NCBI GenBank assembly: GCA_903861045.1
Contig: CAIOST010000339.1
Location: forward strand, 1-51,451
Origin: an uncultured bacterium
Lineage (GTDB): Bacteria; Verrucomicrobiota; Kiritimatiellia; RFP12; CAIWXQ01
Direction of reading: 5' to 3'
Length of the DNA: 51,451 nucleotides
Made by a program: the position numbers and the translations under genes. Below the pieces are notes generated by a model. The model ran no database searches and was not told the origin of the DNA. It saw only the letters and a program-made list of their open reading frames with translations. The stretch's first letter is position 1. Every line of letters begins with the position of its first letter. Of the stretch, positions 1 to 19,031 are shown in pieces.

Positions 1-31
1 GCTCCAGCTGCGGCAGTTCGCGAGGTCGTAG

Positions 32-107
32 GCTGCTGTCAGTAGCCCCGGCCCGCCCCCGGGCCGAGGGCGGATTGCTATCCCTGGCCGGTACGCTCGT
101 GGTTGGC
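32..107. repeat. Copy 1 of a ~70-bp GC-rich element (direct repeat with 296..371); contains hairpin cggcccg-cccc-cgggccg
   Basis: Seen in sequence: cagtagccccggcccgcccccgggccgagggcggattgctatccc... recurs at 304-370 with about 85% identity. A 7-bp perfect inverted repeat lies inside the unit. Confidence 0.6.
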
Positions 108-150
108 CGGCATTGTTGTCCTGATCATAGCCACCTTGGATCACGCTGCC

Positions 151-185
151 CGCGGCCCGGGGCGGGCCGGGGCTACTGGCTGCGG
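151..185. repeat. Inverted partial copy of the same ~30-bp GC-palindromic element
   Basis: cgcggcccggggcgggccggggctactggctgcgg is the reverse complement of gcYgcNgNcagtagccccggcccgccccgggccg seen at 32-66 and 296-330. Confidence 0.55.
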
Positions 186-238
186 CCTGCGCTGGACTGC
201 CGGGGTCTTAATCTTGGGTCTTTGTCTTGCCGCTGGAC

Positions 239-281
239 AGATTAAGACCGGAGATTAAGACCGGAGATTAAGACTGAAGAT
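239..281. repeat. Tandem 13-mer x3.3 (agattaagaccgg)
   Basis: Seen directly: agattaagaccgg agattaagaccgg agattaagactga agat. Noncoding region. Confidence 0.7.
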
Positions 282-295
282 ATCCCATTGCCTTG

Positions 296-371
296 GCTGC
301 GGTCAGTAGCCCCGGCCCGCCTCCGGGCCGAGGGCGGACTGCTATCCCGGGCCGGTAACGATCGTTGTTGG
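296..371. repeat. Copy 2 of the ~70-bp GC-rich element
   Basis: gctgcggtcagtagccccggcccgcctccgggccgagggcggactgctatcccgggccggtaacgatcgttgttgg, direct repeat of 32-107. Confidence 0.6.
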
Positions 372-385
372 AAAAACCTGCCAGT

Positions 386-416
386 TAGGTGCTAGGTGGT
401 AGGTGCTAGGTGGTAG
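386..416. repeat. Tandem 14-mer x2.2 (taggtgctaggtgg)
   Basis: Seen directly: taggtgctaggtgg taggtgctaggtgg tag. Confidence 0.65.
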
Positions 417-704
417 TGACGGGCGGCAGGGATACGCGGAGCAAACATAAACCGCTAATGCACGCAAATGGACGCGAATGCGAGAATTCTTTACAGCGAG
501 GGACGCGAGGGGAGTTTCATGGTACTTGGTTGCTGGCGCCGGGTGGACGTGCGGTGGCATAGGGGGGCAACCGGCAAGGAACCATGGGTTTGGGAATTTC
601 CGCCCTTGGAATTTAGGATTTGTTGCGGATTTCGGTATTCGGATTTCGAGTTTCCGCGACGGACGCAGAGTGCGGCTGGCCCTAACCTACCGTTCTGGTG
701 CCGA

Positions 705-937
705 CTTTCCAGCCGCCTCGACCAGCCGCTTGGCCTGCGCCGTAAGTTTCTGATCCACGGTACGGCCGGTCAGGTGCGGCAGTCGCCCTCGTTGCAACAG
801 CGGGTCGCGCGCATGGCCGCGGAAGCTGCGCACACACCCCTCGCGCACTTCGATGCGCCCTACCACACGGGCCGTCGCCTGTATCCGCAACTCCGCCAGC
901 CGCAACAAGCGCGCTACCGGTGGCGGCAGCGCCCCGA
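705..937 (-). pseudogene. Detached duplicate of the 3' end of mfd (last ~75 codons), left copy of a long direct duplication
   Basis: Translation (ORF 687..908 -) reads ...LRLAELRIQATARVVGRIEVREGCVRSFRGHARDPLLQRGRLPHLTGRTVDQKLTAQAKRLVEAAGKSAPER. The intact Mfd C-terminus at 13537.. reads ...LRLAELRIQATARGVGRIEVREGCVRIFRGHSRDPLLQRGRLPQLTGRTVDQQLTALTKLVEAAGK. DNA identity is about 90% over ~230 bp, with a perfect 54-bp run at 883-936 = 13725-13778. There is no upstream mfd body. Confidence 0.75.
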
Positions 938-982
938 ATGGCCGCCCGTCTCCTATGAACCGGATGAATTGCGAGACTTCCT

Positions 983-1732
983 TTACGATGAAGGTGTTGC
1001 TGCCACCACAGTTATGTTGCGCGTGTTATCAATGCCGCCGAAGACCAGGTGATCCTTTGCCATGTTGGCCAGATCGTCTTTGCGGTTCAACCAGTCAGGC
1101 ATGGCACGGTCGAGCGCCTGCCAGAATTTAGGTCCGTGGTGCTTTTCCATCAGATGAATGAGTTCGTGCATGATGACGTAGTCTATTAACCGAACAGGCA
1201 ACTGAAGAACCCGCCAATTAAACCGAACAATTCCGTTCTTGCTGCACGATCCCCACAGAAACCCAAGATCACCAACCTCAATCTTTTCTGGTTTCCGGGC
1301 GGTATGTCGCGAGAGCCGCTCGACGCGCTGGCTAATCCATTCCGTGCCGGTCTCGAGATACCAGCGACGGAAGTGGGATTCTGCCGGACGGGCATCGCGA
1401 CGCAATGTGAACTGCGTCCCGTCGAATTGTAACGGAAGCGGTTGCTTCGACACAACCTTCAGCCTGAAACGACGCCCCAAATAGCAAAAGCCCTCGCCCG
1501 AAACATATTCCGGTGTGGTTAATCCAGGTGCCACAGATGCTTTTAGCGCCAGTTTACGATATACCCACACCAACTTATTGTTAATCCAGCGGGTGAGATC
1601 TTCGACCGATGTCGCTACGGGAACGTGCGCAACCAATTCAGCGCCACGATCCACCGTTAGCCCCAGCGTCTTGCGACGGGCGCTCCGGCGCACATCAAAT
1701 ACTAAACCATTTAGTTGGACGGTTTCGCTCAT
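983..1732 (-). CDS. YgjP-like (DUF45/M48-family) zinc metallohydrolase, translationally coupled to hsdR
   Basis: HEXXH motif in IMHELIHLMEKHHGPKFW is typical of YgjP/DUF45. Its ATG overlaps the hsdR stop (1729-1732). DUF45 genes commonly follow hsdR. Confidence 0.7.
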   Translation of the reverse strand: MSETVQLNGLVFDVRRSARRKTLGLTVDRGAELVAHVPVATSVEDLTRWINNKLVWVYRKLALKASVAPGLTTPEYVSGEGFCYLGRRFRLKVVSKQPLPLQFDGTQFTLRRDARPAESHFRRWYLETGTEWISQRVERLSRHTARKPEKIEVGDLGFLWGSCSKNGIVRFNWRVLQLPVRLIDYVIMHELIHLMEKHHGPKFWQALDRAMPDWLNRKDDLANMAKDHLVFGGIDNTRNITVVAATPSS

Positions 1733-4700
1733 GAGTTGGTCAGGTTGGAGTGGTTTTCCTTAGCAAGGGCGACGAGACGCTGGGCTAGATCGCGTTCTGT
1801 ACCGGGGCAGCAGATACCGGCGCGGTCGAGATCCCGAACTAAACTCTTGGTCAACAGTTCGCGCATGTCGTCGTTCTTCCAGAAGCCGACTTTACGCACT
1901 TCTTGACGGATGCGCTCTACCATATCCAGTGTAGTCTTAATGGACTTTTCGCGCTGATCCGCATTCTGTTCACGCCCCTTGCCACATTCTTCCAACACAA
2001 GGCGAACGAATGGTACTTGCGCCTTGGCGTCGAGATGCGGGAAATCATTCCGGTCACCCTGGCGTAACTCATCAATATACTTCTTCAGTTCCCGCTCGAG
2101 GGCGTTCCAGTCGTCTTTGAACCGCTGGAGAATCTCCTCCAAGCGCTGGCTCATCTTCCGGGCGTAGGCCGGGTTCTGATTTGAGAAGCCGATGATGTGG
2201 TAGCGGGCGGCGTGTTGCATCTGCGCAGCGCGGGCGCGGCTGCTAGTTTGGGCTTGCAACACCTTTTCAAACTCCGCGTCGGTGATGGCCGTGGGCGGAA
2301 TCTTGGGGTCAACGCCACGCGCCGAAATATGGGCGTTGATGAGCGCCTTTACTTTTTCCGCCACGCCAAATAGATTCAATGACGGGTCGCGATACAAGTT
2401 AGCGGCTACTTTGTTGATGAAGCCTAGCAGTTTGGCGTCGCGAAATACATCGTTCGGCACTTCCGGCCGGTGCTCCAGAATACCCAGCAATTCGTAAAAC
2501 ATGCGCAGTTTGTTAATGAAATCGGCACGTAGCTTCAGGTCTTCAAGCAACTGCACGCAGACATCAACCTGACTCTGCAAATCCGTGATGCCCCGGCCTG
2601 TAAATACCGCGACCGCCCGCGCTCTTCGATCGAGCAATTTGGGCAATTCGACGTTGATGTCAATCAACGCGCCAGCGGTATCATTACCATCGTAATCTTT
2701 AAGCGCGACCTCCAAATGTTGAGCCACACCGATGTAGTCCACCACATAGCCACACTTCTTCTGGCCACAGGTTCGATTCACCCGCGCAATGGCCTGCAAC
2801 AAGTCATGTGCGACGATTTTACGGTCGAGATAAAGCACCTGTTCCACAGGCGCGTCAAAGCCCGTCAGCAACATGTTCATCACAACGAGAATCGTCAGGG
2901 GATCGGTCTTGTCGGTCTTATCCGGAGAAAACTTGCGCTTGAAACGTTTGATGAGTTCCTCTTGTTTACCCTTGTCCGCCCAATCCCACCATGCCTCAGG
3001 ATCGTTATGGTTGCCGGAGAAGACGGCGGCAATCTCCAAGGCGCGAAGCTTGGGCAGTTGCTGATGGATTTGCAGCAGAAACTGCGTCTTGGCATCGAGA
3101 TTATTCGTCTCGTCATCGGTCAACCCCAGCGTGGCGGCAGGTACAGCCTCCAATTCGGAAACCAGTTCCGTCCGCGCCAGCGCAAGTTTATCGAGATAGG
3201 TCATCACCGCCTGCCGGCTCGTGGCTACGATCTGTGCCTTGAAGCCCTCGGGTAAAACCACGCTGGCGAAATGCCGGATCATATCGCGCGCCTTTTGCTC
3301 AATAAGCATAGGCGCCTCCATCACATCGCCTTCGGTCGCATACTTGGCCTTAATAACGGCTAATTCCTTCTGCGTGTATTCACAGAACATATCCTCGAAC
3401 AGGGTGTCGAGGTTGGGCGCGTCCTTGACGATCCCGTCTGCGGTCCGGCCTTCGTAGAGAATCGGCACGGTGGCGCCATCGAGTTCCGCGTCCTGGAGAA
3501 GGTATTTATCAATGTAGTCGCCGAAGATATCTTTCGTCTCCGTCTTTTCACTGTTTAGGATGGGCGTCCCGGTAAAGCCGATGATGGCAGCGTTGGGCAG
3601 CGCTTTGTGGAGGTTGCGATGCAGCGTGCGCGTGTGGGAACGATGCGCTTCGTCCACCAGTACGAGAATTTCCGGAGAATCGTTGAGTAATGGGAATTCC
3701 TCGAACCGAATATTCTCCGTGAAGGTGACGGATTTTTCGACGACTGGCTCGTTGCGGCCTGGCTTCTTCTCCTTGCGAACGATGGTCATGGCCACCTTGT
3801 CGCCGGGTTGATCGCCTGGCTCAGGCAACAGGGCCAGCGCAGCGTCATCCTGCTTGCTGCCAACGGGTTGATACTTTTGCAGCATCGCCATAATGATGTC
3901 CGGCGTGCGTTCGCTGAGCAGGCGTTGGGTCAGAGCCGTCGGTGACTCGCGCGATTTCAAATCCTCGTCTGTCGGACGAACGGCTTCCCCACTCAACTGC
4001 GCTGTCGCGCCAAGTTGGGCCTGCAAGTCCGTGCGGTCGGTCACGACGACAATCTTGAACCGGTTGAGGCGCGGCATCATCCGCATTTTACGCACAAGGA
4101 AGACCATGCTGAGGCTCTTGCCCGAACCTTGCGTGTGCCAGATGATGCCCCCGCGCTGGTCGCGCTCCGCGCCCTGCGCCTTGGTCTGGCCATCCTGTAA
4201 TCTGGCCACGGCCTTGTGAATCGCGCGAAACTGCTGGTAGCGCGCCACCACCTTGCGCGTCTTGCCGTCCACTTGCTGAAACACGGTGAAATTACGGATG
4301 AGATCGAGCAAGTGCGCCGGTCGCAACATGCCGGCGACAAGAATCTGCTGACTCTGCAACGTGGCTCCGAAACCTTCGCGTAAGACATCCGGGCGCTCTT
4401 TGCGATCCCGGAAGAATAGCGGCGTGCCTACCCGGTCGCCATGTTCCGCGCCCAATGTGGCCAATTCCTGGGCGGCTTCTGTCTCGTCCGCGGGCCGGGA
4501 CAACACCCCGAGCTCCTGCGCCACGGTGCTCAATGGCACGGGGCTGGTATCGGCCCATTCCAAATATGCCTCCGGCGGCGCGCCGATGGTCGCCGCTCGC
4601 GACTCAAAGAAATCGCTGGCGATAAGCAACTGGTTGGTATGAAACAGTTTCTCCACGCCCTCGTTCTCGGTGTAGAGCGTGGGGTATATCTCCCGGCGCT

Positions 4701-5262
4701 GGTTGCAATAGCGCAGCAGTTGGTTGATGGCCTCCTGCAACGGGTTCTCTATACCGGGACTTTTGAACTCCGCGACGGACACCGGAATGCCGTTGATGAA
4801 CAGCACCGCATCTGGAATGATGTGGCCACGCCCACTGGTTAGTTCCACCTTGAACTGGTTGATCACGAGAAAATCGTTATTGGCTGGGTTCTCGAAATCT
4901 ATAAAGCAAATGGGCTGCGGGCGGCCGCGTTCCCAGTCCGGCAGGCCTTCCGCCACCGTACCCTTGAGCAAAAGCTGGGTGGCAGCTTGATTGCTCTCCA
5001 TTAACCGGTGTCCGGCAGCCTGCTCCAGATCGCGGATGGCGCGGGCAATGCGCTCGTCATCCAGCCACGGCTGGCCGTCACGCAGGTTGAGTTTGCGAAG
5101 CGCCGCCGCGAGCCGCCCTTTGAGCAAAACCTCACGGAAGTTGGCGCGCTCAGTAAAATCGGGCACGTCCTTGTCGCCCTCAATCCACTGCCAACCCATG
5201 GCCTTGAGTTGCTCGCAGAACGGGCGCTCGGCCAGATCGTATTCCCATTGGATTTTGCTCAT
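1729..5262 (-). CDS. hsdR: Type I restriction enzyme R subunit (HsdR), 1177 aa
   Basis: SF2 helicase motifs: Walker A WHTQGSGKSLSM and DEAH box LVLVDEAHRSH. The N-terminal nuclease region and operon context with hsdM/hsdS also fit. Confidence 0.9.
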   Translation of the reverse strand: MSKIQWEYDLAERPFCEQLKAMGWQWIEGDKDVPDFTERANFREVLLKGRLAAALRKLNLRDGQPWLDDERIARAIRDLEQAAGHRLMESNQAATQLLLKGTVAEGLPDWERGRPQPICFIDFENPANNDFLVINQFKVELTSGRGHIIPDAVLFINGIPVSVAEFKSPGIENPLQEAINQLLRYCNQRREIYPTLYTENEGVEKLFHTNQLLIASDFFESRAATIGAPPEAYLEWADTSPVPLSTVAQELGVLSRPADETEAAQELATLGAEHGDRVGTPLFFRDRKERPDVLREGFGATLQSQQILVAGMLRPAHLLDLIRNFTVFQQVDGKTRKVVARYQQFRAIHKAVARLQDGQTKAQGAERDQRGGIIWHTQGSGKSLSMVFLVRKMRMMPRLNRFKIVVVTDRTDLQAQLGATAQLSGEAVRPTDEDLKSRESPTALTQRLLSERTPDIIMAMLQKYQPVGSKQDDAALALLPEPGDQPGDKVAMTIVRKEKKPGRNEPVVEKSVTFTENIRFEEFPLLNDSPEILVLVDEAHRSHTRTLHRNLHKALPNAAIIGFTGTPILNSEKTETKDIFGDYIDKYLLQDAELDGATVPILYEGRTADGIVKDAPNLDTLFEDMFCEYTQKELAVIKAKYATEGDVMEAPMLIEQKARDMIRHFASVVLPEGFKAQIVATSRQAVMTYLDKLALARTELVSELEAVPAATLGLTDDETNNLDAKTQFLLQIHQQLPKLRALEIAAVFSGNHNDPEAWWDWADKGKQEELIKRFKRKFSPDKTDKTDPLTILVVMNMLLTGFDAPVEQVLYLDRKIVAHDLLQAIARVNRTCGQKKCGYVVDYIGVAQHLEVALKDYDGNDTAGALIDINVELPKLLDRRARAVAVFTGRGITDLQSQVDVCVQLLEDLKLRADFINKLRMFYELLGILEHRPEVPNDVFRDAKLLGFINKVAANLYRDPSLNLFGVAEKVKALINAHISARGVDPKIPPTAITDAEFEKVLQAQTSSRARAAQMQHAARYHIIGFSNQNPAYARKMSQRLEEILQRFKDDWNALERELKKYIDELRQGDRNDFPHLDAKAQVPFVRLVLEECGKGREQNADQREKSIKTTLDMVERIRQEVRKVGFWKNDDMRELLTKSLVRDLDRAGICCPGTERDLAQRLVALAKENHSNLTNS

Positions 5263-6743
5263 GGAACTTTGCGGCCTTTGCTTTGCAACCGTTTTCCAAC
5301 CGCTGTGAGTCTGTAGCTCTGTCGGCTACTTTGCGGTTTGGCAGGAATGGTGCGTTCCAACCAGCCGCCCTCCAGCGCAGGGGCTAAATAGTTCCGTCGG
5401 AAATGCTCACGGTCAGCAAGCTTCAGCCTGGCCTGCAACTTCTCCCTGGACAGCTCCCCCTCAACCACTCGAACGAGCGACTCTACTTCCGGGGTGACTT
5501 CCGGGGTAACTTCCGGGGTGACTTGCGGGGTGACTTGCGGGCTGACTTGCGGGGTGACTTGCGGGGTGACTTGCGGGGTCCGAAAGGTCAGCGTCACCCC
5601 CCGTTCCGCCGTCGAAATCCAAACCGGATCGGGCAGCCCTTGTTTCCGGCACGCCTCCATGATCAGAAAACTCCCCCGTCCCAGTTTCTCCATGAAGCCG
5701 CGCAGGTAGAGCACATGGGCAATGTCGGGGTTGCGCAGGACGGAAAGGTGCCCTTGATGCAACAACGTATCCGGCGTGATGCCCGCCGGAAAGGCTCCGG
5801 AATTCCAGATTTCCAAACGCGTCGGATAGACGTGCACGGCGACTCCGCCCGAGTGCTCGGCGTAATCCCGATGGGCAAAGGCATTGATCAAACCCTCGCG
5901 AATGGCCTCTTCCGGATAGACGCAGGCGTCCTGCCGTTGCGGCTTCTCCTTCGAGAACCGCGCCAGTGTGGGTGTGTTGCGGAGAATGAAAGCGAACAAC
6001 TGGTTGAAGACCGGCATCAGCGGCCCGTCAAAGCTCTTCATGTCCGTAAACTGGTCGCTCGCCTTGTCGTGACTGAACGCCGCAGCCCGCACTCGCACCT
6101 GCGGGAAAACACGCCCCGGTTCGTTGGCAAAAAGCACCACCCCGCCCTGCGTCAACCGGCCAAACTGGGCCAGAGACAGGTCATCCAAAACCGTTTGGGT
6201 GTCGTTCGCATTGCGAAACTGGAACGGCCGGGCCTTCCGGATATCTGCCACGGTCGTCTGCACCTCGACGGTCTCGACATCCGACCCCGTGCCACACGTG
6301 GAGAGGCGTCGCTCCCATCGTTCCGGTTCGGCAGACTTCCGCAACACCATTTCACGGATTTCTGCTGCCCCAGCTTTATGGGTGGCGCTCCCTTCGCGTA
6401 GATAGACCACATCCTCGAAGGCGTATGGCACATCTTTGCCGGCAGGCGCCTCGATCAATACCAGTGCCACACCATCAACCTGCTGCACGCCCACCCACAC
6501 CAGCGCTTTAGGCGAAAGCCTTTCGATCAGCAGTTGCTCCACCCGCCGGGCTTCAGATTCGGCATCCGTAACGCCCACGAGTTTTCCGTTGTCGCCAACA
6601 CCGCAAACCAATGTGCCACCGCCCGCATTCAGAAATCCGCACACCACGCCGCCAATGGCCTTGGGGTTGCCCACGCCAGTCTTGAACTCCACGGCCTGCC
6701 CCTCACCGAGACGAAGCACCTCCCGCAACTTCTCCGCTTTCAC
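5259..6743 (-). CDS. COG2865-type protein: N-terminal AlbA_2/Schlafen-like domain + HATPase_c_4-like domain + TPQV repeat linker + C-terminal wHTH
   Basis: N-terminus GEGQAVEFKTG...GFLNAGGGTLVCGVGDNGKLVGV has the AlbA_2 pattern. EEAIREGLINAFAHRDY...RLEIWNSG has the HATPase_c_4 pattern. It carries 8 tandem TPQV/TPEV repeats. It shares a 4-nt overlap with both neighbours. Confidence 0.7.
   Translation of the reverse strand: MKAEKLREVLRLGEGQAVEFKTGVGNPKAIGGVVCGFLNAGGGTLVCGVGDNGKLVGVTDAESEARRVEQLLIERLSPKALVWVGVQQVDGVALVLIEAPAGKDVPYAFEDVVYLREGSATHKAGAAEIREMVLRKSAEPERWERRLSTCGTGSDVETVEVQTTVADIRKARPFQFRNANDTQTVLDDLSLAQFGRLTQGGVVLFANEPGRVFPQVRVRAAAFSHDKASDQFTDMKSFDGPLMPVFNQLFAFILRNTPTLARFSKEKPQRQDACVYPEEAIREGLINAFAHRDYAEHSGGVAVHVYPTRLEIWNSGAFPAGITPDTLLHQGHLSVLRNPDIAHVLYLRGFMEKLGRGSFLIMEACRKQGLPDPVWISTAERGVTLTFRTPQVTPQVTPQVSPQVTPQVTPEVTPEVTPEVESLVRVVEGELSREKLQARLKLADREHFRRNYLAPALEGGWLERTIPAKPQSSRQSYRLTAVGKRLQSKGRKVP
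5486..5580. repeat. In-frame tandem 12-nt repeat x ~8 (encodes TPQV/TPEV linker) inside the COG2865 gene
   Basis: Plus strand reads cttccggggtga / cttccggggtaa / cttccggggtga / cttgcggggtga ... The unit is a multiple of 3, so copy-number change keeps the frame. Confidence 0.8.
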
Positions 6744-7390
6744 GGTTGGCCTCCCTTCGGGTTGGCAATCACTTTGGACACTTTGACCGGATCGGCGAAG
6801 CTCTCCTTCACAAACGCCTCGACCTCCTGATAGCGGAAGAACTGGGCCGTGGCAAACAATGCCGCATCCTCCGGCTCCTGATATTGCTGCACCCAGTTCC
6901 CCTGCCGCTCGCGTAACGGCCTGTCCGAAAGGATCGCGTCTTCATACATGTCAATCACGCGCAGATCGTCAAGCATGGGCGTCTTCTTCAGGCTCAACCC
7001 CTGCCGCGCCTTCCGATCCGCATAGCCGAGATTCTTCAACAACGCACGCGCAAAGACCACATGGTCATGCGCCAGCACCCAGCGCGGCTTCTTCAACGCG
7101 ACGGCCTTGCGCAACTCCTGATGCGTAATGGAAAGCGCCCCCGGTCGATCCTCCTTGCCGCTGCCATAATTCGGCGTGACCAACCCCAGGAACAAATCGC
7201 ACTTCTCCACCGCCACCAGGCAATTCTCGAACGCCGACCGGTTCGAAAACACCGGCATGGTCCCCTTGTGCGACATCCAGACTTCGTACCCATAGGCCGT
7301 CAGCAACGTGTACAAACGGTTCAGCAACTCCTCGATGCCATAGACCGAGGAGGAGACCATGATGACCAGCTTGTCTCGTTTCGCACTCAT
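6740..7390 (-). CDS. DUF4062-like domain protein (216 aa from Met at 7390; alternative start 7480 gives 246 aa and a 20-nt overlap with the upstream gene)
   Basis: KLVIMVSSSVYGIEELLNRL...CDLFLGLVTPNYGSG...SITHQELRKAVALKKPRWVLAH matches the remembered DUF4062 consensus (vFiSSTf.DL..eR...gRYGs..giSyTe.Ey..A...gkp.l.fl). Its stop overlaps the COG2865 start. Confidence 0.55.
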   Translation of the reverse strand: MSAKRDKLVIMVSSSVYGIEELLNRLYTLLTAYGYEVWMSHKGTMPVFSNRSAFENCLVAVEKCDLFLGLVTPNYGSGKEDRPGALSITHQELRKAVALKKPRWVLAHDHVVFARALLKNLGYADRKARQGLSLKKTPMLDDLRVIDMYEDAILSDRPLRERQGNWVQQYQEPEDAALFATAQFFRYQEVEAFVKESFADPVKVSKVIANPKGGQP

Positions 7391-7460
7391 GGGAGTAGAT
7401 CCGTTCCAGGAGCAAGTGTGGCAAAGTGGCGTTTTGTGGTAAAGCTTATCCGCACGAGAA

Positions 7461-9320
7461 TCACGCCTCTTTCCCCTCATTGGCGTTAATCAACTGACCG
7501 AGATGAAAACCCTTCCAGCAAAGATGCACAATCAACCACCAAAGATAGACGGAAGATGCCTGGTAAAAACCACCTTCCGGCAGGAGGCCATGGGCAGATT
7601 CGTTTCGCAAATTATGCCCGAACCTCTCGATCAATAGACCGCGCAAGTCAAACAGGATGTTAGCACCAATGATTCTTTCGACATCCGGGATCCATAGCAA
7701 TTGGTTCAAGTCACGTTCCTGTTGTGTGCCATCCGAATCCAGCGTTGAGGTAATGATCCCATATTGATTCAACACATGTCGAATGGATGCTTCAACCTGC
7801 GGAATCAGCAAATGGAGCGCGGTTAACCAGTCGCCAAAGAACCCGGCCTGGATGCCGCGCAGATAAATCCCCTCGTGCCCTGGCGGAATGAAAGGGTTGT
7901 TTGTCACGAAGAAGATTAAGTCGCGATGACGAATCACGTGTTCGTCGACTATTGCGTAACGCGCAGGTTCGATATACCATACCGCATGCATGGGCCAGTT
8001 GAGCGTTCGCGCCTGTTGGCAAAGTCGCTTACGCAAGGCCTCCTTTTCCTCTTCTGGATTACCAACGCCTGCGGCAGGAACCGTGTCAGCGACTTTTCCA
8101 TCGTGGTCGATAGATGAAGCACCGGCAATTTTATCGAAGATGGTATTCTTGGTAGCTTCTTGGTGCTGCTGTTGAAGTTTCTCGACATCTGTAGGCTGTG
8201 TGACATTGGCAAACCGTACGAGTGCCGTCTGAAAATCATGCCCACGAACATGGGCAGCCGAACGTTCCTGCGTCACCCTTTCAGCTTCAACAAACTCAGG
8301 ATTCGACAAACTGTCAATCTTGATTGTAGTCAACTCTGACAGGCTTTGCTTCTGCAGTGCAAGGAACCGCCGATGAACGGTTTTGATGCGTTCAGGATTG
8401 GCCTTGGCGCGTCGCAAGGCTTCAACACCCCGACCAACCCAATAAGATGCAAACATGGCACCTTGTGTCGCCAGTCCCTCTTCACCACGGGAAACATTGC
8501 ACTCAGCAGCAGCCAATAGACATGCCTGCGCTTCGGTCTCCTTCTTGGCTACTCGATGCCACTGTTCCGCAAGTAGCCAATACGCCTCCGCAACATGCCA
8601 GTCTTCAGCATCCGCAAACCGCTTGGCCAAACGCTCGGACAATGCCGCGTAATGAACTGCGTCTCCCTCCTTAAGGCCCAACAGTGCCAACATGAGATGA
8701 TGGCAAAGCAACCCTGCCTTTGTGTTGTTCTCATATTCAACGATCGCGGCCTCTAAAGCAGCAACCACCGTTTTTCGTTCCGTTTCGAAACCGCGAATAG
8801 CGGAAATTTGCGCCGCGCGCTCCAAACGTTCAACGTAGGGAGGCCAGAGATCGTCAGTCTTAAGACGCTCGGATGCTTGCAGAAAAGCCAAGATGGCAAT
8901 ACGAGCAGCCTTGAAGTCCTTCTTGGTCACCCAGAGTACATCGGCAACACGTGCACGAAATTCCGGGTCTTGAATCTCTTCCACGATCCCGCTAAGTGCG
9001 GCAAGATCGTCTTCGCACAAATCCTCCGCATTCAGCGTCCTCTTGCCGTTGAAACCGCTCCACATCGAGCCGTATGGATTTCCTCGAATATCGTAATTCG
9101 GGTAGAACGAGGCAACGACGTTGAGAAATGAAAAGACGCGAAACCCCAGGTCGTCTTTCGCGGTCGTACATTCCCTCGCTGCGGCAGTAAAGCCTTCACA
9201 GAGCCCGTAACACTCTTTGTTCTTTGCCTGCCACACCCGAGACTGCCAATCGCTTCGACGCAGATCGTCTGCCGTTACGCCAAAACTGGATTGTTTCGTT
9301 TCGCCCATGTCAAACAACAC
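7461..9320 (-). CDS. 619-aa protein with C-terminal HEPN-type motif (Rx4HG; NLR...HG as in DUF4209); N-terminal ~500 aa unassigned
   Basis: C-terminus reads ...RFGHNLRNESAHGLLPEGG... It overlaps the hsdS stop by 11 nt. Codon usage and composition are typical of real genes here. Confidence 0.55.
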   Translation of the reverse strand: MLFDMGETKQSSFGVTADDLRRSDWQSRVWQAKNKECYGLCEGFTAAARECTTAKDDLGFRVFSFLNVVASFYPNYDIRGNPYGSMWSGFNGKRTLNAEDLCEDDLAALSGIVEEIQDPEFRARVADVLWVTKKDFKAARIAILAFLQASERLKTDDLWPPYVERLERAAQISAIRGFETERKTVVAALEAAIVEYENNTKAGLLCHHLMLALLGLKEGDAVHYAALSERLAKRFADAEDWHVAEAYWLLAEQWHRVAKKETEAQACLLAAAECNVSRGEEGLATQGAMFASYWVGRGVEALRRAKANPERIKTVHRRFLALQKQSLSELTTIKIDSLSNPEFVEAERVTQERSAAHVRGHDFQTALVRFANVTQPTDVEKLQQQHQEATKNTIFDKIAGASSIDHDGKVADTVPAAGVGNPEEEKEALRKRLCQQARTLNWPMHAVWYIEPARYAIVDEHVIRHRDLIFFVTNNPFIPPGHEGIYLRGIQAGFFGDWLTALHLLIPQVEASIRHVLNQYGIITSTLDSDGTQQERDLNQLLWIPDVERIIGANILFDLRGLLIERFGHNLRNESAHGLLPEGGFYQASSVYLWWLIVHLCWKGFHLGQLINANEGKEA

Positions 9321-10548
9321 CTTCCGGCACCCTCACACGACCGGTGAGCAGGTCGGTCATCAGGCCGGATTTCAGTTGTTGGAGCTTCCTTAACTCAACC
9401 TCTTCCGACGCAATCGTAGCTTCAGAAGCGAGCATAGCGTTGGCCGCCGTTCGTTGCTCCTCGCTTGGCGGAACTGCAATCTTTAGTCTTTTGAAATACG
9501 GGAGACCAATCGTCTTGATGGTGCTGCCCATCGCAATCGCCTCAAACTGCGGCTTGTTGTGCTGAAGCCAGTAATACAGAAAGAGGTTGTACAGCCGTTT
9601 TCCGCACCGCCACGCCATGAAATGCTGACTGACCGCCATTTCCTCGGCGAGTATCGCACTCTTCCCGATTCCAGCATCACGGGACAGAATGACAGTTCCG
9701 GCCGAGTGCTTCACGGCTGACGAGTTCTCGATTCCGAGTTCGCTGATTTGCTTGTCAGTCTCTGAGATGTAAATGCGGTCGAGTTTGTCTGAGTCAGCCA
9801 ACGACACCCACTTGATGCCCCCATCCCAACAAGAGGGGACATCTTTAGTCGGCGTATGGCCGCTGCCACGGAGGGCGACATCGTCTAAAAGACAAATATC
9901 CCAGTCCTTCGGGAGTTGGCCGAGGGGGGAGTCTTGGAATTGTTCGGGGTGGGCGATGGGGTCGCGGAGTTGGCCGTTGTGGTCGAGGCCGCGGGTGAGG
10001 AGATCGTGGAGCAGGCCGGCGCGCACCTGCCGCAACTTCGCAATCACGGCCTCCGTCTTCGCAATCGCGTCGTCTACCGTGTCCAGAACGGTGGCGATGC
10101 GGGATTGCTCGATTTCTGAAGAAGGTTTGAAAACCCAATGACGTTTCAAGTCGTTCCAGGACGTGCGCGGCATCTTGGTACCAACCCCGGTTGCCGACGC
10201 AGCGGCAAATACGCGCTCCCATTGAAAAACATGGGCGGCATATTGTGGAAGGACACCGTTGCGAGCTCGTAGCACAAGGATATCTGTTGAGCAGTAACCA
10301 GAGAACGGGGCTTTCAGGCTTTTTCGAAGATTTGGTCGGAGTTTGCCAAACAGAATGTCGTCCTTGGAAAAGCAGGAGTTTATGCTGACCGAAGCACTGC
10401 TGGGCAAAGAACCCAGCAAGTGGGGTTGGCCTTGCGCAATGTGCTCAAGTCCGATGTAACGGAGACTCGGGTCTTTGTTGCTTGCAACCTTTTCTGGTCG
10501 CAGTTCAACCAGTGCATCGAGACCGACTGTGGGAGGGCACGCACTCAT
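9310..10548 (-). CDS. hsdS: Type I R-M specificity subunit (HsdS), two target-recognition domains
   Basis: 412 aa with a bipartite repeat structure and conserved central and C-terminal helices (…LRQVRAGLLHDLLTRG…, …LQQLKSGLMTDLLTGRV). Its ATG overlaps the hsdM stop. Confidence 0.85.
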   Translation of the reverse strand: MSACPPTVGLDALVELRPEKVASNKDPSLRYIGLEHIAQGQPHLLGSLPSSASVSINSCFSKDDILFGKLRPNLRKSLKAPFSGYCSTDILVLRARNGVLPQYAAHVFQWERVFAAASATGVGTKMPRTSWNDLKRHWVFKPSSEIEQSRIATVLDTVDDAIAKTEAVIAKLRQVRAGLLHDLLTRGLDHNGQLRDPIAHPEQFQDSPLGQLPKDWDICLLDDVALRGSGHTPTKDVPSCWDGGIKWVSLADSDKLDRIYISETDKQISELGIENSSAVKHSAGTVILSRDAGIGKSAILAEEMAVSQHFMAWRCGKRLYNLFLYYWLQHNKPQFEAIAMGSTIKTIGLPYFKRLKIAVPPSEEQRTAANAMLASEATIASEEVELRKLQQLKSGLMTDLLTGRVRVPEGVV

Positions 10549-13205
10549 CTGTAGGACAATGCCTCCAAGAAAGTCTCCAGATTAGATTCAGCACTTGCAC
10601 GTTCTGAGCGCAGAGCAGTCAACGTCACCCGATACTTGTCCCAAAGACCCTCAATGTAACGCACCAACTCGTGCCGTTTCTCGGCCACGGCGGCGTCGAG
10701 GCCGACCTGCACATCCTGCGCGAAGAGTTCGAGGACGAGGTCGCGTTTCTCGGTGTCGTCGAATCCGGTACAGCGCAGTTTGAGTTCGTTCACAAACTCC
10801 GCGGTGAGCGTGCGGAAAAGGGCGCGGGCTTCGGCGAGTTGTTCCTTGATCGTTTCGTGGGGGACGAGGGCCATTTCGAATGCGGCCAGTTGATCGAGGA
10901 TCGGCTGGAGTTTGCGCTTTAACTCGTTTGACGTGGCAACGGGTTTGCGGACGGCGCGGAGCGCCGTCCCTACCTTTCGTTCCCGCTCCTGTTTGGAAAG
11001 CTCCTTGAGATCGGCCTTGTGCTCGGCCTTGAGTTCGCGGATCTGCCGCTCGATATCTTTGGGGTAGTTCCAGTTCTCCAATTCCTCCTCGTCGAGGTCG
11101 TCGGGCACGTTGCTCTGCTCGAAGGCTTCCTTCTCGCCCTTGAGCCGGGCGATGTCGGACTTGGCGGCGGCGATGCGTTCCAGATAGTCGGTCATGGTGC
11201 GACGGACGAGCTTGTGCGCGAAGGGGTCGAGCACCGGGCCGGCGGCTTCGTCGTCTTCCACGGCGTCGGCGATGGCGTCCACCCAGCCGTCTATGACGCC
11301 AGGGAAGCCGTTTTCGAGCAGGGTCTTGAAGTCAGGGAGCGTGTCGGTCCACCAGGTGGCGATGACGCCGGCGAGTTTGAAGCGATCGAGGGTGTTCAAG
11401 GGCAGCAGCGCGGCGACAAAGGTTTCGAGGAACTCGGCGCGAACCTTGTTGAGCTTGCGATGTTCGGGCAGTTTGGCCAGACGCGGGGAGTGTTCTGCCC
11501 ACCACTGTCCCAGGTGTTGGCGCACGGTCGCAAGGGTCTTTTGAACCCCGGGATCGCTTTCGACCAGCGGGCGGATGGCGGCGCGTTCCGGGAGCGCGGG
11601 GGCGAAGTCGTAGTAGAGCGTGTCGCCTGTGCGCTTGGCGAAGGCGTGGGAAGGCTTGAAGCCGAGGGCGTCGAACAACGCACGGTTGTCCGTCACCTCA
11701 GCCACGGGCACGCCGCCAAGTAGGTGGGCGCGCACGTCGTGCGGCTCTGGTGGTGGGGAGTTGTCCACGTAGCGGCGGATGTTAAGATTGAAATCGTTGG
11801 CTTCGCTGGCGATTTCGGTGAGGGGGACAACGCGGGCGTAGCCGGGGATATCCTGATAGTTATCGAAGGTGGAGACAACCTTTTCGACGTGCTCCGGGCG
11901 GAGGTAGTTTTGCGCGCGGCCAGCATGGAACTCGGCGTCCGCATTGATGAACAGCACCTTGCCCCGACGTTCGGCGGGCTTTTTCGCGTTAGGTGCGTGA
12001 CCGGTGAGGTTGGGGCGCATGATGAGAATACACGCCGGAATGCCCGCGCCGTAGAACAGATTCTGGGGCAAGCCGATGACGGCCTCGATGAGGTCCTGTT
12101 CGAGGAACTTTCTGCGGATCTCCTTTTCCGCCCCGCCGCGAAAGAGCACGCCGTGAGGCATGACCGTGGCAACCATGCCGCCTGGCTTACAGACGGCAAG
12201 CATGTGCTGGGCGAACATGAGGTCGCCCTTCTTGCCGGAGGTTGGACACCAGCCCCAGCGGAAACGCTCGGGAAACTCCATGTTGTTGCGCGTGTAGTTC
12301 TGGCTGAAAGGCGGATTGGCGATGACACGGTCGAATCGTTCCAGTTCGCCAGCATCCTTATGCAGCGGGTGCAGCAAAGTGTCCTGAAGTTGAATATCTG
12401 CGCCGGTGACGCCGTGCAGGAGCATATTCAATTTACAGATGGACCAAGCCGAGGCGTCGTTAACCTGGCCGCAGAGGCGAAGGTTGGTGGGGTCGCCACC
12501 GGATTGCTCGATGAACTCGCGGCTGATGATAAGCATGCCGCCCGAACCGCAGGTGGGGTCATAGACAGATAGGCCGGGCGCGGGTTTGAGGATACGCACC
12601 ATGAGACGGATGACATCGCGCGGCGTGTAGAAATCTCCACCCTTTTTGCCCGCCGACTCGGCGAAATTGTTGATGAGGAACTCGTAGGCCGCGCCCAGCA
12701 GGTCGGAGAACTGAAAATCCTCATTGCGCAGCCTGTAGCGGCTAAAGATACGGCTGACCAGGTCTTTGCAACAGTCGTCCGAAACGATGCGTTTGCCGCT
12801 CTCGACGGCCATGAAGAAGATACGATCGAGGACATGCTCCAACTGCGGGTTGGATTCGCGGAGCGCCGCGAGCGCTTTGTCAAGGACCGAGCCATACACT
12901 ACGTTGGCGTCGCCTAGTTTGTCCTTGAGGTAACCCCATCGAGCGCAATCGGGGACAAAGAAACCATCGTAGTAATCAGGATTTTCGCCGTACTGTTTCT
13001 CCGCTGCATCTTTCACCATGCCTTGTTCGACCTTCCGGCCGACAATATTCTCGCGTTCGGCCTCAAAGACGTCCGAACACCGCTTCAGGAAAAGCATGCC
13101 GAAGATGTAATCCTTGTAAGTGGCCGCATCGAGTCCCTCCTGGCGAAGTCGGTCAGCAGCCGACATGAGATGTCGTTCGAGTTTGGCGAGGGAAAGGCGT
13201 GGCAT
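10545..13205 (-). CDS. hsdM: Type I R-M N6-adenine DNA methyltransferase subunit (HsdM), unusually long (886 aa) with ~350-aa C-terminal coiled-coil extension
   Basis: HsdM_N-like start (ERHLMSAADRLR...YKDYIFGMLFLKRCSDVFE), SAM motif DPTCGSGGML and catalytic NPPF (IANPPFSQ). Confidence 0.88.
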   Translation of the reverse strand: MPRLSLAKLERHLMSAADRLRQEGLDAATYKDYIFGMLFLKRCSDVFEAERENIVGRKVEQGMVKDAAEKQYGENPDYYDGFFVPDCARWGYLKDKLGDANVVYGSVLDKALAALRESNPQLEHVLDRIFFMAVESGKRIVSDDCCKDLVSRIFSRYRLRNEDFQFSDLLGAAYEFLINNFAESAGKKGGDFYTPRDVIRLMVRILKPAPGLSVYDPTCGSGGMLIISREFIEQSGGDPTNLRLCGQVNDASAWSICKLNMLLHGVTGADIQLQDTLLHPLHKDAGELERFDRVIANPPFSQNYTRNNMEFPERFRWGWCPTSGKKGDLMFAQHMLAVCKPGGMVATVMPHGVLFRGGAEKEIRRKFLEQDLIEAVIGLPQNLFYGAGIPACILIMRPNLTGHAPNAKKPAERRGKVLFINADAEFHAGRAQNYLRPEHVEKVVSTFDNYQDIPGYARVVPLTEIASEANDFNLNIRRYVDNSPPPEPHDVRAHLLGGVPVAEVTDNRALFDALGFKPSHAFAKRTGDTLYYDFAPALPERAAIRPLVESDPGVQKTLATVRQHLGQWWAEHSPRLAKLPEHRKLNKVRAEFLETFVAALLPLNTLDRFKLAGVIATWWTDTLPDFKTLLENGFPGVIDGWVDAIADAVEDDEAAGPVLDPFAHKLVRRTMTDYLERIAAAKSDIARLKGEKEAFEQSNVPDDLDEEELENWNYPKDIERQIRELKAEHKADLKELSKQERERKVGTALRAVRKPVATSNELKRKLQPILDQLAAFEMALVPHETIKEQLAEARALFRTLTAEFVNELKLRCTGFDDTEKRDLVLELFAQDVQVGLDAAVAEKRHELVRYIEGLWDKYRVTLTALRSERASAESNLETFLEALSYR

Positions 13206-13536
13206 GGTTTTACTACCTGTATGCGATATGTGCGGGCGTTACCGGCGGGAACTGCTAGATCTTGGTTCTTCCATCATTACGAAAACGCCATGCGAGTACG
13301 AACGATGATCGCGATCGTTGGTCGGCTGCGCCTGTTCCAACCACAGATTCCAGAAGCGCGTATTGATTGATAAGAAAGGCGCTTTCGTCAAACCCCGATC
13401 GGCCTCGGCCCACGCGGGCCGAAAACATGCCGGAAACGGTCAGGCGCAACGATGCCTTGGGAAGGAGCATGGCAGAAGCGGGGAGAAACGTCAAGATCAC
13501 CACCAACCAGCGCTTTGGGACGGACGGAGTAGGCCC

Positions 13537-16500
13537 CTACTTTCCCGCCGCCTCGACCAGCTTGGTCAGCGCCGTAAGTTGCTGATCCACGGTGCGGCCG
13601 GTCAGTTGCGGCAGTCGCCCGCGTTGTAACAGCGGATCGCGCGAATGGCCACGGAAGATGCGCACACACCCTTCGCGCACTTCGATGCGCCCTACCCCAC
13701 GGGCCGTCGCCTGAATCCGCAACTCCGCCAGCCGCAACAAGCGCGCTACCGGTGGCGGCAGCGCCCCGTAACGATCCGCCAACTCCTGCTGTAACTGCCG
13801 CACTTCCGCCACCTTTACCAGCTCCGCCAGCCGCCGGTGCAGCGCAAAGCGCTGCGCATCGTCTTCCACATACTGGTACGGCAGACACGCGGAGCGCGCC
13901 GCATCTGGCGTGCCGGGTGACAAATCAATAAAATCAAGGCGCAGATCCACATCGACCAGCGCCGGTGGCTGCTCCCCCTGCAAACGGGCCACGGTGCGCC
14001 GTAGCAACTGGCAATAGAGGCCAAAACCAATCGCGGCAATGTGGCCGCTTTGCGCCGACCCCAGTAGGTTCCCCGCCCCACGGATCTCCAGGTCGCGCAT
14101 GGCCAGGCCGAAACCGGCCCCCAGCGCACTATGCTTCTGCATGGCCGCCAGTCGCTGCCGACCATCCGCATCCACATGCCCCTGCTCCGGCAGCAACAGG
14201 TACGCAAACGCCTTGTGCGAAGAGCGCCCCACCCGCCCGCGCAACTGATAGAGATCCGCCAGCCCGAAACGATCCGCCCGGTGAATCAGAATCGTGTTGG
14301 TCCGCGGAATGTCCAAACCACTCTCGACAATCGTCGTGCAGAGCAGCACATCGCACGCCCCCGCCTCAAAATCACGCATGATTCCGGCGAGCTGCGTGGA
14401 GGACATCTGCCCATGCGCCACGGCCACACGCGCCTCCGGCACCACCCGTTCCAGCCGCGCCCGCATCAAGTCAATGCTGAGTACCCGGTTGTACAAGAAG
14501 AAGACCTGCCCCTCGCGGTTGAGCTCCTGGAGGATCGCCGAGCGGATCACCGCATCGGTATCGCGGACCACGCGCGTCTCCACGGCCAGGCGCTCCTGCG
14601 GCGGCGTTTGCAACAGGCTCATATCGCGGGCGCCGGTCATACTCTGGTAGAGCGTACGCGGAATGGGCGTGGCGGTTAGCGTCAGCACATCCACCAGTTG
14701 CCGCACCTGCTTGAGATACTCCTTGTGCGCCACGCCAAAGCGCTGCTCTTCGTCGATCACCAGCAGCCCCAGATCGCGGAAGGCCAACCCCGGCTGCAGC
14801 AGCGTATGCGTGCCGATCACAATATCCACGCCGCCCTCTGCCAGCGCCAGCATCACGCGCCGCCGCTCGGCCTGGGTGCGGAAGCGGCTCAAGACCTCGA
14901 TGCGGATCGGATAGGCGGCCATGCGCTCGCGGAACGATTCGTAGTGCTGTTCCGCCAGCACCGTGGTCGGCACCAGCACCGCCACCTGCTTGCCATTCAT
15001 CACGGCAATAAACGCCGCGCGCATGGCGATCTCGGTCTTGCCATACCCCGCATCGCCGCAGATCAGGCGGTCCATGGGGCGGTTCGACGCCAAGTCCGCC
15101 TTGATCTCGGCAATCACCTTTTCCTGGTCCACCGTTTCGCGATAAGGAAAAGCCGCCTCGAAGGCCTGCATCCAGGACGGATCGGTCTGATACGCAAACC
15201 CCGGACGCAACTGGCGCCGCGCCTGCGTCTCCAGCAGAGAAGCCGCCAGATCCTGGATGGCGCGCTCGGCCTCGGCCTTTTCGCGCAGCCAGCGCCGTCC
15301 GCCCAAGCGGTGTAACGGCGGTGGTTGACCAGCCACACTGACATAGCGGCTCAGCAGCGAGGCATGCGCCACCGGCACATGCAACCGCGCCCCCTCGGCG
15401 TATTCCAGCGTCATGACCTCGCTGCGCCGGCCATCCATCTCGATCTCGGTGACGCCGGCATAGCGCCCCAGGCCATGATCGAGGTGCACCACCAGATCGC
15501 CCGGCGTCAGCTCGCCCAGGGACTCCACGCGCGGTCCGCGTGCCGGTGCCGCCGCCGTGGTCGCGGGCAGATAGCGCCGGCCGGATTGCTTACGTACCGC
15601 ATAGAGATCGGACTGCGTGGCGACGGTTAAATGCGCCGCCGGCAGCACAAAACCACCCGACAAGCGCGCATGCTGCACGCGCACCGGTGCCGCCGCACCC
15701 AGCTCGCGGACGAGTTGTTCACAAGCCCCCGCCGTATCCATGCAGAGTGCCACGGTCTCGCCAGCCGCGCCGCGCCGCGTTAATTCGGCCAGCAGCCGTT
15801 GCCGCACCATGGCGCTGACTTCCGGATGGTGCCAATCAGCTACATCCGCCAACCCCGCAATGGGCGCGAGTGCCAGCGGCAGCGAGGGCGTGGCCGGTGG
15901 CGGCGGATCGCCACAGAAAAGTTCCAGGACCGGCCGCCGGGCGGCGACGTGTTGCTGTAACTGATCCCAATCCAGCAGCTTGTCATCACCCGCCACGCGC
16001 TCTGCCGCAAACTGCCGCACCTGATCATGCGCCAGCCAGATCACGACCGACCCTTCGGGGAGCAGGTCCGCCAGCAGTACCTCCGGCAGGGCCGCGACGC
16101 GGCAGGGCGGCACCCAGGCCTCCTCGCGCTTTTCCACGGAGCACTGCGTGCCCGGATCAAACACGCGCAGCGATTCCAGCGTATTGCCAAAAAACTCCGC
16201 GCGCAGTGGCAGCGGCGCAGTCAGCGGCCAGACATCCAGCAGCCCGCCCCGCACGGCCAGTTCGCCTTTGGCGGTGACCTCGGCCACGCGCGCAAACCCG
16301 CCTGACACGAGGCGCTCTACCAGTTCATCAAACGCGAACTCCGCGCCCACGTGCAAGGAGACGGCCGCGCGCTCCACCGCCAGTGGGTCCGGCACAGACT
16401 GCTGGAGCGCCAGCACACAGGTGGCCAGCAGCGTGGCGCCGGCTGGAGCCGTCGCGTGCTGACGCAGGGCCTGCAGCGTGGCAAAGCGGATACCGGCCAG

Positions 16501-18900: not shown

Positions 18901-19031
18901 AAGGGTATGGCTCCTGTCGCGAGGTAGCATAGCAAAGTTCCGCGCAAACTTGCGAAACATATGGCAGCCAAATTTCCTGTTGCTCAAACCGCTGACCGGG
19001 GCGTAGACTACTCCCAAGATGGTGTGGGGTC

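Follow-up and report, generated by a model that had tools for sequence, protein, structure and literature searches.

A type I restriction-modification (R-M) operon on contig CAIOST010000339.1 of an uncultured Kiritimatiellia bacterium probably holds two independent, horizontally acquired defense modules stacked in a variable cargo slot between hsdS and hsdR. We place the probability of this reading, taken together with the module mechanisms proposed below, at about 0.7. The whole stretch of DNA that was analyzed, 51,451 nt, is referred to here as the window. Three genes occupy the slot. Gene X (module 1) encodes ORF615, a protein with a C-terminal HEPN domain, and genes Y and Z (module 2) encode, respectively, a small DUF4062/NIR protein and a Schlafen-ATPase-helix-turn-helix protein of the COG2865 type (Schlatpase-HTH). 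A first-pass annotation of this DNA had recognized the extra genes as defense-type cargo embedded in a type I R-M operon, which our analysis bears out, and had read the trio as one abortive-infection system, which it does not. The genes found embedded in type I R-M operons are often defense systems in their own right (10.1101/2024.01.29.577857; PMC11411939). Here, we present evidence that genes Y and Z form a widely conserved pair that apparently joins two known families of immune effectors in a new two-gene arrangement, whereas ORF615 belongs to a candidate family that has already been catalogued.

Independence of the two modules

The two modules were not found together outside the source organism. 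A scan of 185,579 species genomes with a NIR alignment returned 221 genomes, from which the best 80 loci were examined in detail; the corresponding survey of ORF615 homologues covered 80 metagenomic and 9 viral loci, at 24-57% identity. ORF615 homologues are present in 0/80 of the NIR-pair loci. Conversely, the survey of homologues of the HEPN gene (the ORF619 of the first-pass annotation) for DUF4062 and COG2865 partners, which that annotation had proposed as a check, found NIR or close Schlatpase genes in 0/89 loci.

Comparison with related operons points the same way. In the sister operon L001, whose HsdM, HsdR and YgjP proteins are 80%, 86% and 77% identical to those of the window, the slot contains the next-closest relative of ORF615 (68%; L001/L002) and a PDC-S06 AAA_13 ATPase gene, without the pair, while operon L045 (HsdR 79% identical) contains the pair and lacks ORF615. 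Compared with L001, the window loses DNA homology after 5264 and regains it at 7501, and the gap, 5265-7500, exactly brackets the pair together with the 70-nt spacer that separates it from ORF615. The modules also differ in base composition: G+C at third codon positions (GC3) is 0.54 in ORF615 versus 0.79 and 0.70 in the neighboring pair genes. Two further features of L001 may be recorded here. A 55-aa open reading frame (ORF) with similarity to the C-terminus of HsdS (PADLOC Specificity_I, E 3e-4) follows the ORF615 homologue and is followed in turn by the PDC-S06 AAA_13 ATPase gene (11860-14255), and a GmrSD/HEC-06-like gene lies past ygjP (18516-20582). The HsdS-like relic hints at cargo exchange by recombination at hsdS 3' ends.

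These observations make it highly improbable that the trio is a single R-M-embedded abortive-infection system in which the HEPN protein is the effector and its sensor or regulator is provided by the DUF4062 and Schlafen-ATPase proteins. The three genes are, in the window, adjacent, co-directional and part of one packed operon, and the trio does recur on several metagenome contigs; all of these, however, are near-identical copies from the same organism, and against the single-system arrangement stand the absence of co-occurrence beyond it, the sister operons that hold one module without the other, the L001 homology break, the GC3 difference and the spacer. The division of labor that this arrangement requires fares no better, since both supposed sensor proteins carry conserved catalytic effector motifs: DUF4062 is a demonstrated NADase effector domain, and the Schlafen protein retains the Ex4ExK nuclease motif.

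All seven operon proteins were scanned against Pfam, PADLOC and NCBIfam. The domain assignments of the first-pass annotation for the three inserted genes (HEPN-like; DUF4062; Schlafen, HATPase_c_4 and winged helix-turn-helix, or wHTH) were confirmed by Pfam, by the HEPN fold and by an invariant Rx4H motif. ORF615 matches DUF7380 (131.9 bits) and DUF4209 (47.5 bits), and its N-terminal and middle regions consist of DUF7380 and TPR-like helical repeats. Its AlphaFold2 model (pLDDT 88.9) matched, at full length, helical-repeat structures alone, and its C-terminus forms the four-helix up-down bundle of the HEPN fold. Within this bundle lies the motif R568-NESA-H573 (RNESAH, 7590-7607), of the Rx4-6H type, in which R568, N569 and H573 are invariant across 44 homologues of 49-85% identity. 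DUF4209 is the C6orf70/ERMARD HEPN family (Anantharaman et al. 2013), noted in R-M related operons (PMC3710099). ORF615 is, in addition, a full-length, stand-alone match to the PADLOC family PDC-S39 (PDLC05011; E 9.5e-160, 531 bits, residues 15-603 against model positions 8-580 of 595). PDC-S39 is a single-gene phage defense candidate from a 'guilt-by-embedding' screen (Payne et al. 2024), defined by embedding in R-M, BREX or DISARM systems, and ORF615 shares with it both the DUF7380 + DUF4209 architecture and the location inside a type I R-M operon. Because no structural difference from the family was apparent, ORF615 is an ordinary member of it. In the literature searched PDC-S39 is listed as a candidate, and no experimental validation of it is reported there. 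The PADLOC check on novelty proposed in the first-pass annotation thus gave a divided answer, ORF615 being already catalogued and the NIR-Schlatpase pair being absent from PADLOC-DB 2.0.0.

ORF615 resembles PrrC and RloC as a latent RNase-type effector placed between hsd genes. It differs from them in its HEPN family, DUF4209, in giving no PADLOC PrrC match, and in having no N-terminal ABC-ATPase; no ATPase domain of any kind was found in it with Pfam, NCBIfam or PADLOC. The AAA_13/PDC-S06 gene of the sister operon L001 is more PrrC-like. The ORF615 family is linked to R-M in 6 of 22 well-flanked loci, the other 16 being without adjacent detectable hsd genes, and the closest relative (85%) adjoins a type IIG-like R-M system. 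Among the 89 loci we found no conserved partner gene. A protein of ~301-328 aa, which is absent from the window, directly adjoins ORF615 homologues in four loci (L003 12013-12999, L106 11869-12837, L107 1780-2748 and L140 9060-9965; the L106 copy has no PADLOC match) and may be an optional partner of some PDC-S39 genes. By analogy with HEPN effectors of abortive-infection and toxin-antitoxin systems and with HEC-08, the DUF7380 and helical-repeat N-terminal region of ORF615 would act as a sensor that holds the C-terminal HEPN RNase inactive until triggered, and its activation would lead to RNA cleavage and abortive infection.

The conserved NIR-Schlatpase pair

In 77 of the 80 loci a Schlatpase orthologue lies directly downstream of the NIR gene, and in 65 of these 77 the junction is a 4-nt overlap; the three exceptions comprise one contig end and two apparently decayed loci. 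The pair occurs in archaea and in more than 12 bacterial phyla. Its hosts include Methanomicrobiales, Methanothrix, Verrucomicrobiota, Lentisphaerota, Spirochaetota, Chlorobiota and Desulfobacterota as well as Beta-, Gamma- and Epsilonproteobacteria, Bacillota, Bacteroidota, Fibrobacterota, Omnitrophota, Patescibacteria and others, with cultured representatives in Pseudomonas mosselii, Geotalea uraniireducens Rf4 and Methanoplanus endosymbiosus. Pairwise identities of NIR proteins and of their partners are correlated (r = 0.79, 1953 comparisons), which is consistent with co-transfer and possibly with co-evolution. When the search was reversed, three of four sampled Schlatpase homologues (48-53% identity), among them that of P. 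mosselii, had NIR upstream with the same overlap. Pairs with a NIR identity of 41-46% are still found on plasmids, one from Hymenobacter and the other, of 8.9 kb, from Acinetobacter baumannii. No third conserved gene was found beside the pair: 86 neighbors were singletons, and a Pfam tally of the neighborhood gave scattered R-M components only.

Several individual loci deserve mention. The A. baumannii plasmid pC9_4 (L192; NZ_CP113446.1) carries, at 2477-4351, a 182-aa DUF4062 gene followed by a gene for a 440-aa HATPase_c_4 + Fic-like_C protein in which no SLFN_AlbA_2 domain is detectable. According to the Evangelion preprint, Eva02 and a DUF4062 homologue from A. baumannii were not protective on their own; if the latter is the protein of L192, a missing partner gene might, speculatively, account for such negatives. 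In an Armatimonadota locus (L187), ADP-ribosylglycohydrolase genes at 1076-2767 and 4876-6228 flank the locus, one of them ending 165 nt upstream of NIR. This single case may be relevant to ADP-ribose made by a NADase, or may be a coincidence. A 679-aa gene upstream of the Geotalea pair, containing the string IRDREAH, was considered as a diverged ORF615 analogue and rejected because it has no significant BLASTP, Pfam or PADLOC similarity.

Gene Y encodes a NADase-family protein for which NAD+ hydrolysis is a putative activity. DUF4062 (PF13271) is matched at 55.4 bits against a cut-off of 24.7 (E 7e-15), and the putative catalytic glutamate, E92 in SITHQE (7115-7117), is invariant in 83/83 NIR-family sequences. 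Compared by reported position rather than by alignment, E92 resembles E87, E97, E98, E103 and E108 of characterized DUF4062 proteins. DUF4062 has been identified as the TIR-like NADase effector of Swarozyc, Avs2, Vulcan and Vesta (10.64898/2026.05.01.722283; 10.64898/2026.09.04.749371), and the 2026 preprints on DUF4062/NIR NADases also cover Evangelion. Gene Y shares with these systems the DUF4062 core, the position of the catalytic Glu, a W-containing motif, and an association with defense and horizontal mobility. Swarozyc, Evangelion, Vulcan and NIR-Avs2, however, each consist of one protein, whose AUX, HEAT or STAND sensor is long and variable, whereas the gene Y product is 216 aa long, is conserved over all 216 residues (58-75% identity across archaea and bacteria) and has a near-obligatory downstream partner. 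Vesta does pair a NIR protein, VstA, with a second protein, but that protein, VstB, is an alkaline phosphatase; the partner here consists of SLFN_AlbA_2, HATPase_c_4 and wHTH domains, and no phosphatase family recurs among the neighbors. The NIR protein itself has no match in PADLOC-DB 2.0.0.

Gene Z matches SLFN_AlbA_2 (PF04326, 64.3 bits), HATPase_c_4 (PF13749, 57.4 bits) and the Fic-like_C wHTH (82.2 bits), each above cut-off. The domain order, an Ex4(E/D)xK motif and a GHKL N-box identify it as a Schlatpase, or pSlfn-HisKinase-HTH protein, which is the commonest prokaryotic Schlafen architecture and is reportedly in tight association with R-M. Its orthologues share this architecture; full-length identity is 57% for the Geotalea orthologue and 52% for that of Methanoplanus, and the 80 partners share 38-58% identity with the window protein. 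Prokaryotic Schlafen domains are tRNases, with Ex4(E/D)xK as their catalytic motif (PMC13056530; PMC13462974). By alignment-based counts across the 80 partners, the Schlafen glutamates E14 and E19 are conserved in 75/80 and 77/80, respectively, and N287, H291, R292 and D293 of the GHKL N-box are essentially invariant, being found in almost every partner that has a residue at these positions. In PADLOC-DB 2.0.0 the protein matches pAgo-associated models alone, and searches of PDB sequences with all three insert proteins gave nothing useful except a match of the Fic-like wHTH (4rgl) and a weak GHKL match. The linker between the GHKL and wHTH domains is encoded by a 12-nt tandem repeat (Table 1). 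Copies of its TPQV/TPEV unit vary by orthologue, with ~4 in Geotalea, 5-6 in Methanoplanus and 8 in the window, and the tract is absent from many partners; it could be a slippage-prone linker of variable length. In the characterized Schlatpases (SLFN-pAgo preprint 2026; Taboada et al. 2026; Cash paper 2026), the sensor is part of the Schlatpase chain itself and is Argonaute, an Ig-like domain or Csx15. For the small HTH-type Schlatpases, by contrast, no trigger or partner has been reported, and the subfamily described here is marked by its conserved upstream NIR gene. The NIR-Schlatpase pairing is unmentioned in the text of the DUF4062/NIR, Schlafen and embedding literature searched, figures and most supplements lying outside that search, and the texts of the DUF4062/NIR preprints contain no reference to Schlafen, AlbA, HATPase or restriction.

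The R-M association of the pair is strong and not obligatory, because 14 of the 28 pair loci with adequate flanks contain type I hsd genes (the other half having none within 10 kb), 22 of the 64 loci with enough upstream sequence have hsdM immediately before the pair, and at least four placements of the pair among the hsd genes were found, spread over different R-M families. The association reflects repeated insertion. The same counts bear on the proposal that the cargo genes are accessory or regulatory R-M subunits without autonomous function, for example that the wHTH Schlatpase controls hsd expression or senses R-M failure or DNA breaks, in the manner of PrrC-EcoprrI. The frequency of type I operons and of placement after hsdM speaks for this, as do the translational coupling of the Schlatpase gene to hsdR in the window and the tight association with R-M that published surveys find for ATPase-containing Schlafens, which they name as possible sensors of DNA-cleavage products (PMC13462974). 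We nevertheless consider it improbable, given the loci without hsd genes, which include housekeeping contexts and plasmids, the variety of positions and R-M families, and the modest R-M linkage of the ORF615 homologues. The TgvAB system of Vibrio cholerae VPI-2 offers a parallel for independently acting cargo: it is likewise a two-gene defense unit between hsd genes, and it is independent of, and complements, the surrounding R-M system. Its proteins are unrelated to the pair (a GmrSD-like type IV restriction system versus a NADase and a Schlafen protein), and TgvAB has been validated experimentally, whereas the pair is known from sequence.

In many pair-hosting type I operons (among them L017, L020, L034, L036, L044, L050, L078, L086 and L092), hsdM is present as two complete paralogues, each of which matches residues 1-484 of HsdM from the window, and the pair lies either between them or behind the second; in some of these operons a second, NIR-less Schlatpase paralogue occurs just upstream of hsdR. 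In a Margulisiibacteriota type I operon (L190, 11789-15261), a NIR-less Schlatpase and IetA/IetS lie between hsdS and hsdR, again as stacked cargo.

It has also to be considered whether the pair is an addiction module, with NIR as toxin and Schlatpase-HTH as antitoxin and autorepressor, that stabilizes mobile elements or the R-M island and senses no phage. A small enzyme gene overlapping a larger gene for an HTH protein is a classic toxin-antitoxin-like layout, pairs are found on small plasmids beside vapBC, and the patchy distribution suggests horizontal transfer. A simple antitoxin or repressor would have no need, however, of the nuclease and ATPase motifs that are strongly conserved in the partner; both domain families have been tied experimentally to phage defense; about half of the loci lie inside R-M operons; and phage and viral collections contain almost no copies of the pair. 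Neither module had a match in 50,697 phage genomes, and IMG/VR yielded one NIR-pair locus and nine distant ORF615 relatives, so that neither module is typically phage-borne. The addiction-module explanation accordingly has little chance of being correct.

Operon layout, junctions and flanking sequence

The operon consists of seven intact, co-directional minus-strand ORFs at 983-13205, in the order hsdM-hsdS-X-Y-Z-hsdR-ygjP (Table 1); with hsdM, hsdS and hsdR all intact in one operon, it is a complete type I R-M locus. Four of the five overlaps that the first-pass annotation had described could be read directly: ATGA at hsdM/hsdS (10545-10548), GTGA at DUF4062/COG2865 (6740-6743, with GGGAGG ahead of the overlap), and ATGA at both COG2865/hsdR (5259-5262) and hsdR/ygjP (1729-1732). 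The chain of overlaps is less continuous than had been claimed. An 11-nt overlap of hsdS with the HEPN gene requires a GTG start at 9320, which gives a 619-aa product; the ATG start at 9308, one base past the hsdS stop (TGAcATG), is favored by the N-termini of homologues and by the database call (P0001, 615 aa). The start of the DUF4062 gene is fixed at 7390 (216 aa) by an alignment of 24 homologues, and a 70-nt spacer (7391-7460) therefore follows ORF615 and breaks the chain. The spacer is not conserved at other loci, the DNA homology of the pair beginning at ~7364-7372.

Table 1. Features of the type I R-M operon and of its inserted genes (positions in the window)
Feature	Position	Strand	Description
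hsdM	10545-13205	minus	886 aa, long type I methyltransferase, first gene of the operon; Pfam HsdM_N + N6_Mtase; PADLOC MTase_I E 8e-264
hsdS specificity subunit	9310-10548	minus	Pfam Methylase_S; PADLOC Specificity_I E 2e-84
ORF615 (gene X, module 1)	7461-9308	minus	615 aa; DUF7380, TPR-like helical repeats, C-terminal DUF4209/HEPN
HEPN domain of ORF615	7464-7874	minus	residues ~479-615
Spacer, module 1 / module 2	7391-7460	minus	70 nt; sole non-overlapping junction within the insert; left edge of indel relative to sister operon L001
DUF4062/NIR gene (gene Y, module 2 gene A)	6740-7390	minus	216 aa, TIR-like NADase family
Schlatpase-HTH gene, COG2865 (gene Z, module 2 gene B)	5259-6743	minus	494 aa
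SLFN_AlbA_2 domain of gene Z	6375-6704	minus	
Ex4ExK motif EGQAVEFK of gene Z	6681-6704	minus	Schlafen nuclease motif intact
GHKL N-box of gene Z, EAIREGLINAFAHRD	5865-5912	minus	intact
HATPase_c_4 (GHKL ATPase) of gene Z	5586-5843	minus	
12-nt tandem repeat	5485-5579	minus	7.9 copies, 93% matches, TRF score 155; encodes TPQV/TPEV linker, GHKL to wHTH
Fic-like_C wHTH of gene Z	5304-5489	minus	
hsdR restriction subunit	1729-5262	minus	1177 aa; TIGR00348 420.8 bits (cut-off 284.55); Pfam HSDR_N, SWI2_SNF2, T1R_D3-like
ygjP-like metallopeptidase gene	983-1732	minus	Pfam YgjP-like E 8.5e-48; last gene of conserved operon scaffold

The first-pass annotation had concluded from the overlaps that the block is one transcription-translation unit. 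The tight packing stands, and on that basis a single transcript of seven genes is plausible. Scans of 1-13600 gave 4 promoter-like sites against 4.8 expected by shuffling and 13 terminator-like sites against 16.8 expected, and because these counts are at or below the shuffled expectation they neither back nor refute a single transcript. The R-M block, located directly downstream of mfd, has a G+C content of 52-60%, as compared with 62-69% for the flanking DNA. Neither an integrase gene nor a tRNA gene adjoins it; the only tRNA gene in the window is tRNA-Lys, at 39270-39346. A plus-strand ORF at 468-1052 overlaps the 3' end of ygjP in antisense; it appears as a 177-aa gene in public annotations of this contig, has no family match and is probably spurious. 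In all members of the R-M scaffold (window, L001, L045 and L106) the ygjP-like gene and the end of hsdR overlap, and in Methanoplanus an 827-aa YgjP-like fusion lies near the pair (L013 12030-14513).

Proposed action of the pair and its implications

We infer an anti-phage function for both modules, as well as the NIR-Schlatpase interaction, its trigger and any cross-talk with R-M. In the mechanism that we propose for module 2, NIR and Schlatpase-HTH, being translationally coupled, would form a complex in which the Schlatpase serves as the switch. Its variable wHTH end would sense nucleic acid or DNA damage, and sensing would drive ATP-dependent oligomerization of the Schlatpase, as in the SLFN-pAgo system RzAgo. 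In SLFN-pAgo, binding of ATP by the GHKL domain leads to tetramerization and activation of the SLFN nuclease (10.64898/2026.05.29.728809). Oligomerization would release both the tRNase of the Schlatpase itself and the NADase of its partner, resulting in a two-effector growth arrest of infected cells.

A number of observations weigh against two autonomous modules acting in this way. The Schlafen residue K21 is kept in just 61/80 partners, so that nuclease activity may be lacking in some of them. It would be unusual for one small system to have two effectors, and the case for a physical NIR-Schlatpase interaction consists of translational coupling and correlated divergence; the latter (r = 0.79) may be largely due to co-transfer. 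No NIR-Schlatpase fusions were found among the top 120 homologues of either protein. The fourth of the sampled Schlatpase homologues (49%), in a type I R-M operon with IetAS, lacks NIR. The pair of a P. mosselii isolate lies among the guaB/guaA housekeeping genes, and some pairs have no other defense gene nearby. As to module 1, PDC-S39 is a candidate only, and the functions ascribed to both modules are predictions from sequence. Finally, functional cross-talk between the modules, or with R-M, is possible because all three genes share a tightly packed operon.

TIR-family enzymes act as signal generators in Thoeris. The pair might work by analogy, with NIR acting not as a bulk NADase but as the maker of a NAD-derived signal upon infection, the GHKL adenine-nucleotide pocket binding it, and the Schlafen tRNase as the sole effector. 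Such an arrangement would suit the strict two-gene linkage, and the whole-length conservation of NIR is more in keeping with an enzyme whose partner or ligand is fixed than with a fast-evolving phage sensor. The Schlatpase does have a nucleotide-binding switch domain (10.64898/2026.05.29.728809). The GHKL domain, however, is known to bind ATP and not derivatives of ADP-ribose (ADPR), and the four characterized DUF4062 systems act terminally, hydrolyzing NAD+ to ADPR and nicotinamide (10.64898/2026.05.01.722283; 10.64898/2026.09.04.749371). Thoeris itself is defined by a SLOG or Macro receptor effector, and with Pfam neither these nor any other known signal-receptor domain was found in the Schlatpase, so that the likeness is one of functional analogy only. 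We regard this explanation as distinctly unlikely. A broader possibility, also unlikely, is that the pair is an unrecognized pan-prokaryotic two-enzyme system whose proteins communicate, either through a NAD-derived signal that gates the tRNase or through Schlatpase oligomers that unlock the NADase; insertion into R-M operons would then provide surveillance of R-M failure or of DNA ends made by R-M.

Taken as two independent modules, the insert illustrates that multi-gene 'cassettes' in R-M operons can be stacks of unrelated modules, which matters for automated, embedding-based discovery of defense systems. The most valuable outcome, which formed no part of the first-pass annotation, is the conserved NIR-Schlatpase pair. 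Small Schlafen-GHKL-HTH proteins number in the tens of thousands and cluster with R-M, and their mechanism of activation is called unknown in recent papers; it was not until 2026 that DUF4062/NIR was recognized as an immune effector with NADase activity, so far in fusions or pairings with other partners. A conserved operon that contains both provides a testable way into the switching of Schlafen proteins, into cooperation or signaling between a NADase and a tRNase, and into the repeated landing of such genes in type I R-M operons. Were the two enzymes indeed to communicate, the pair would supply the first trigger and partner for the large class of small HTH-type Schlatpases.

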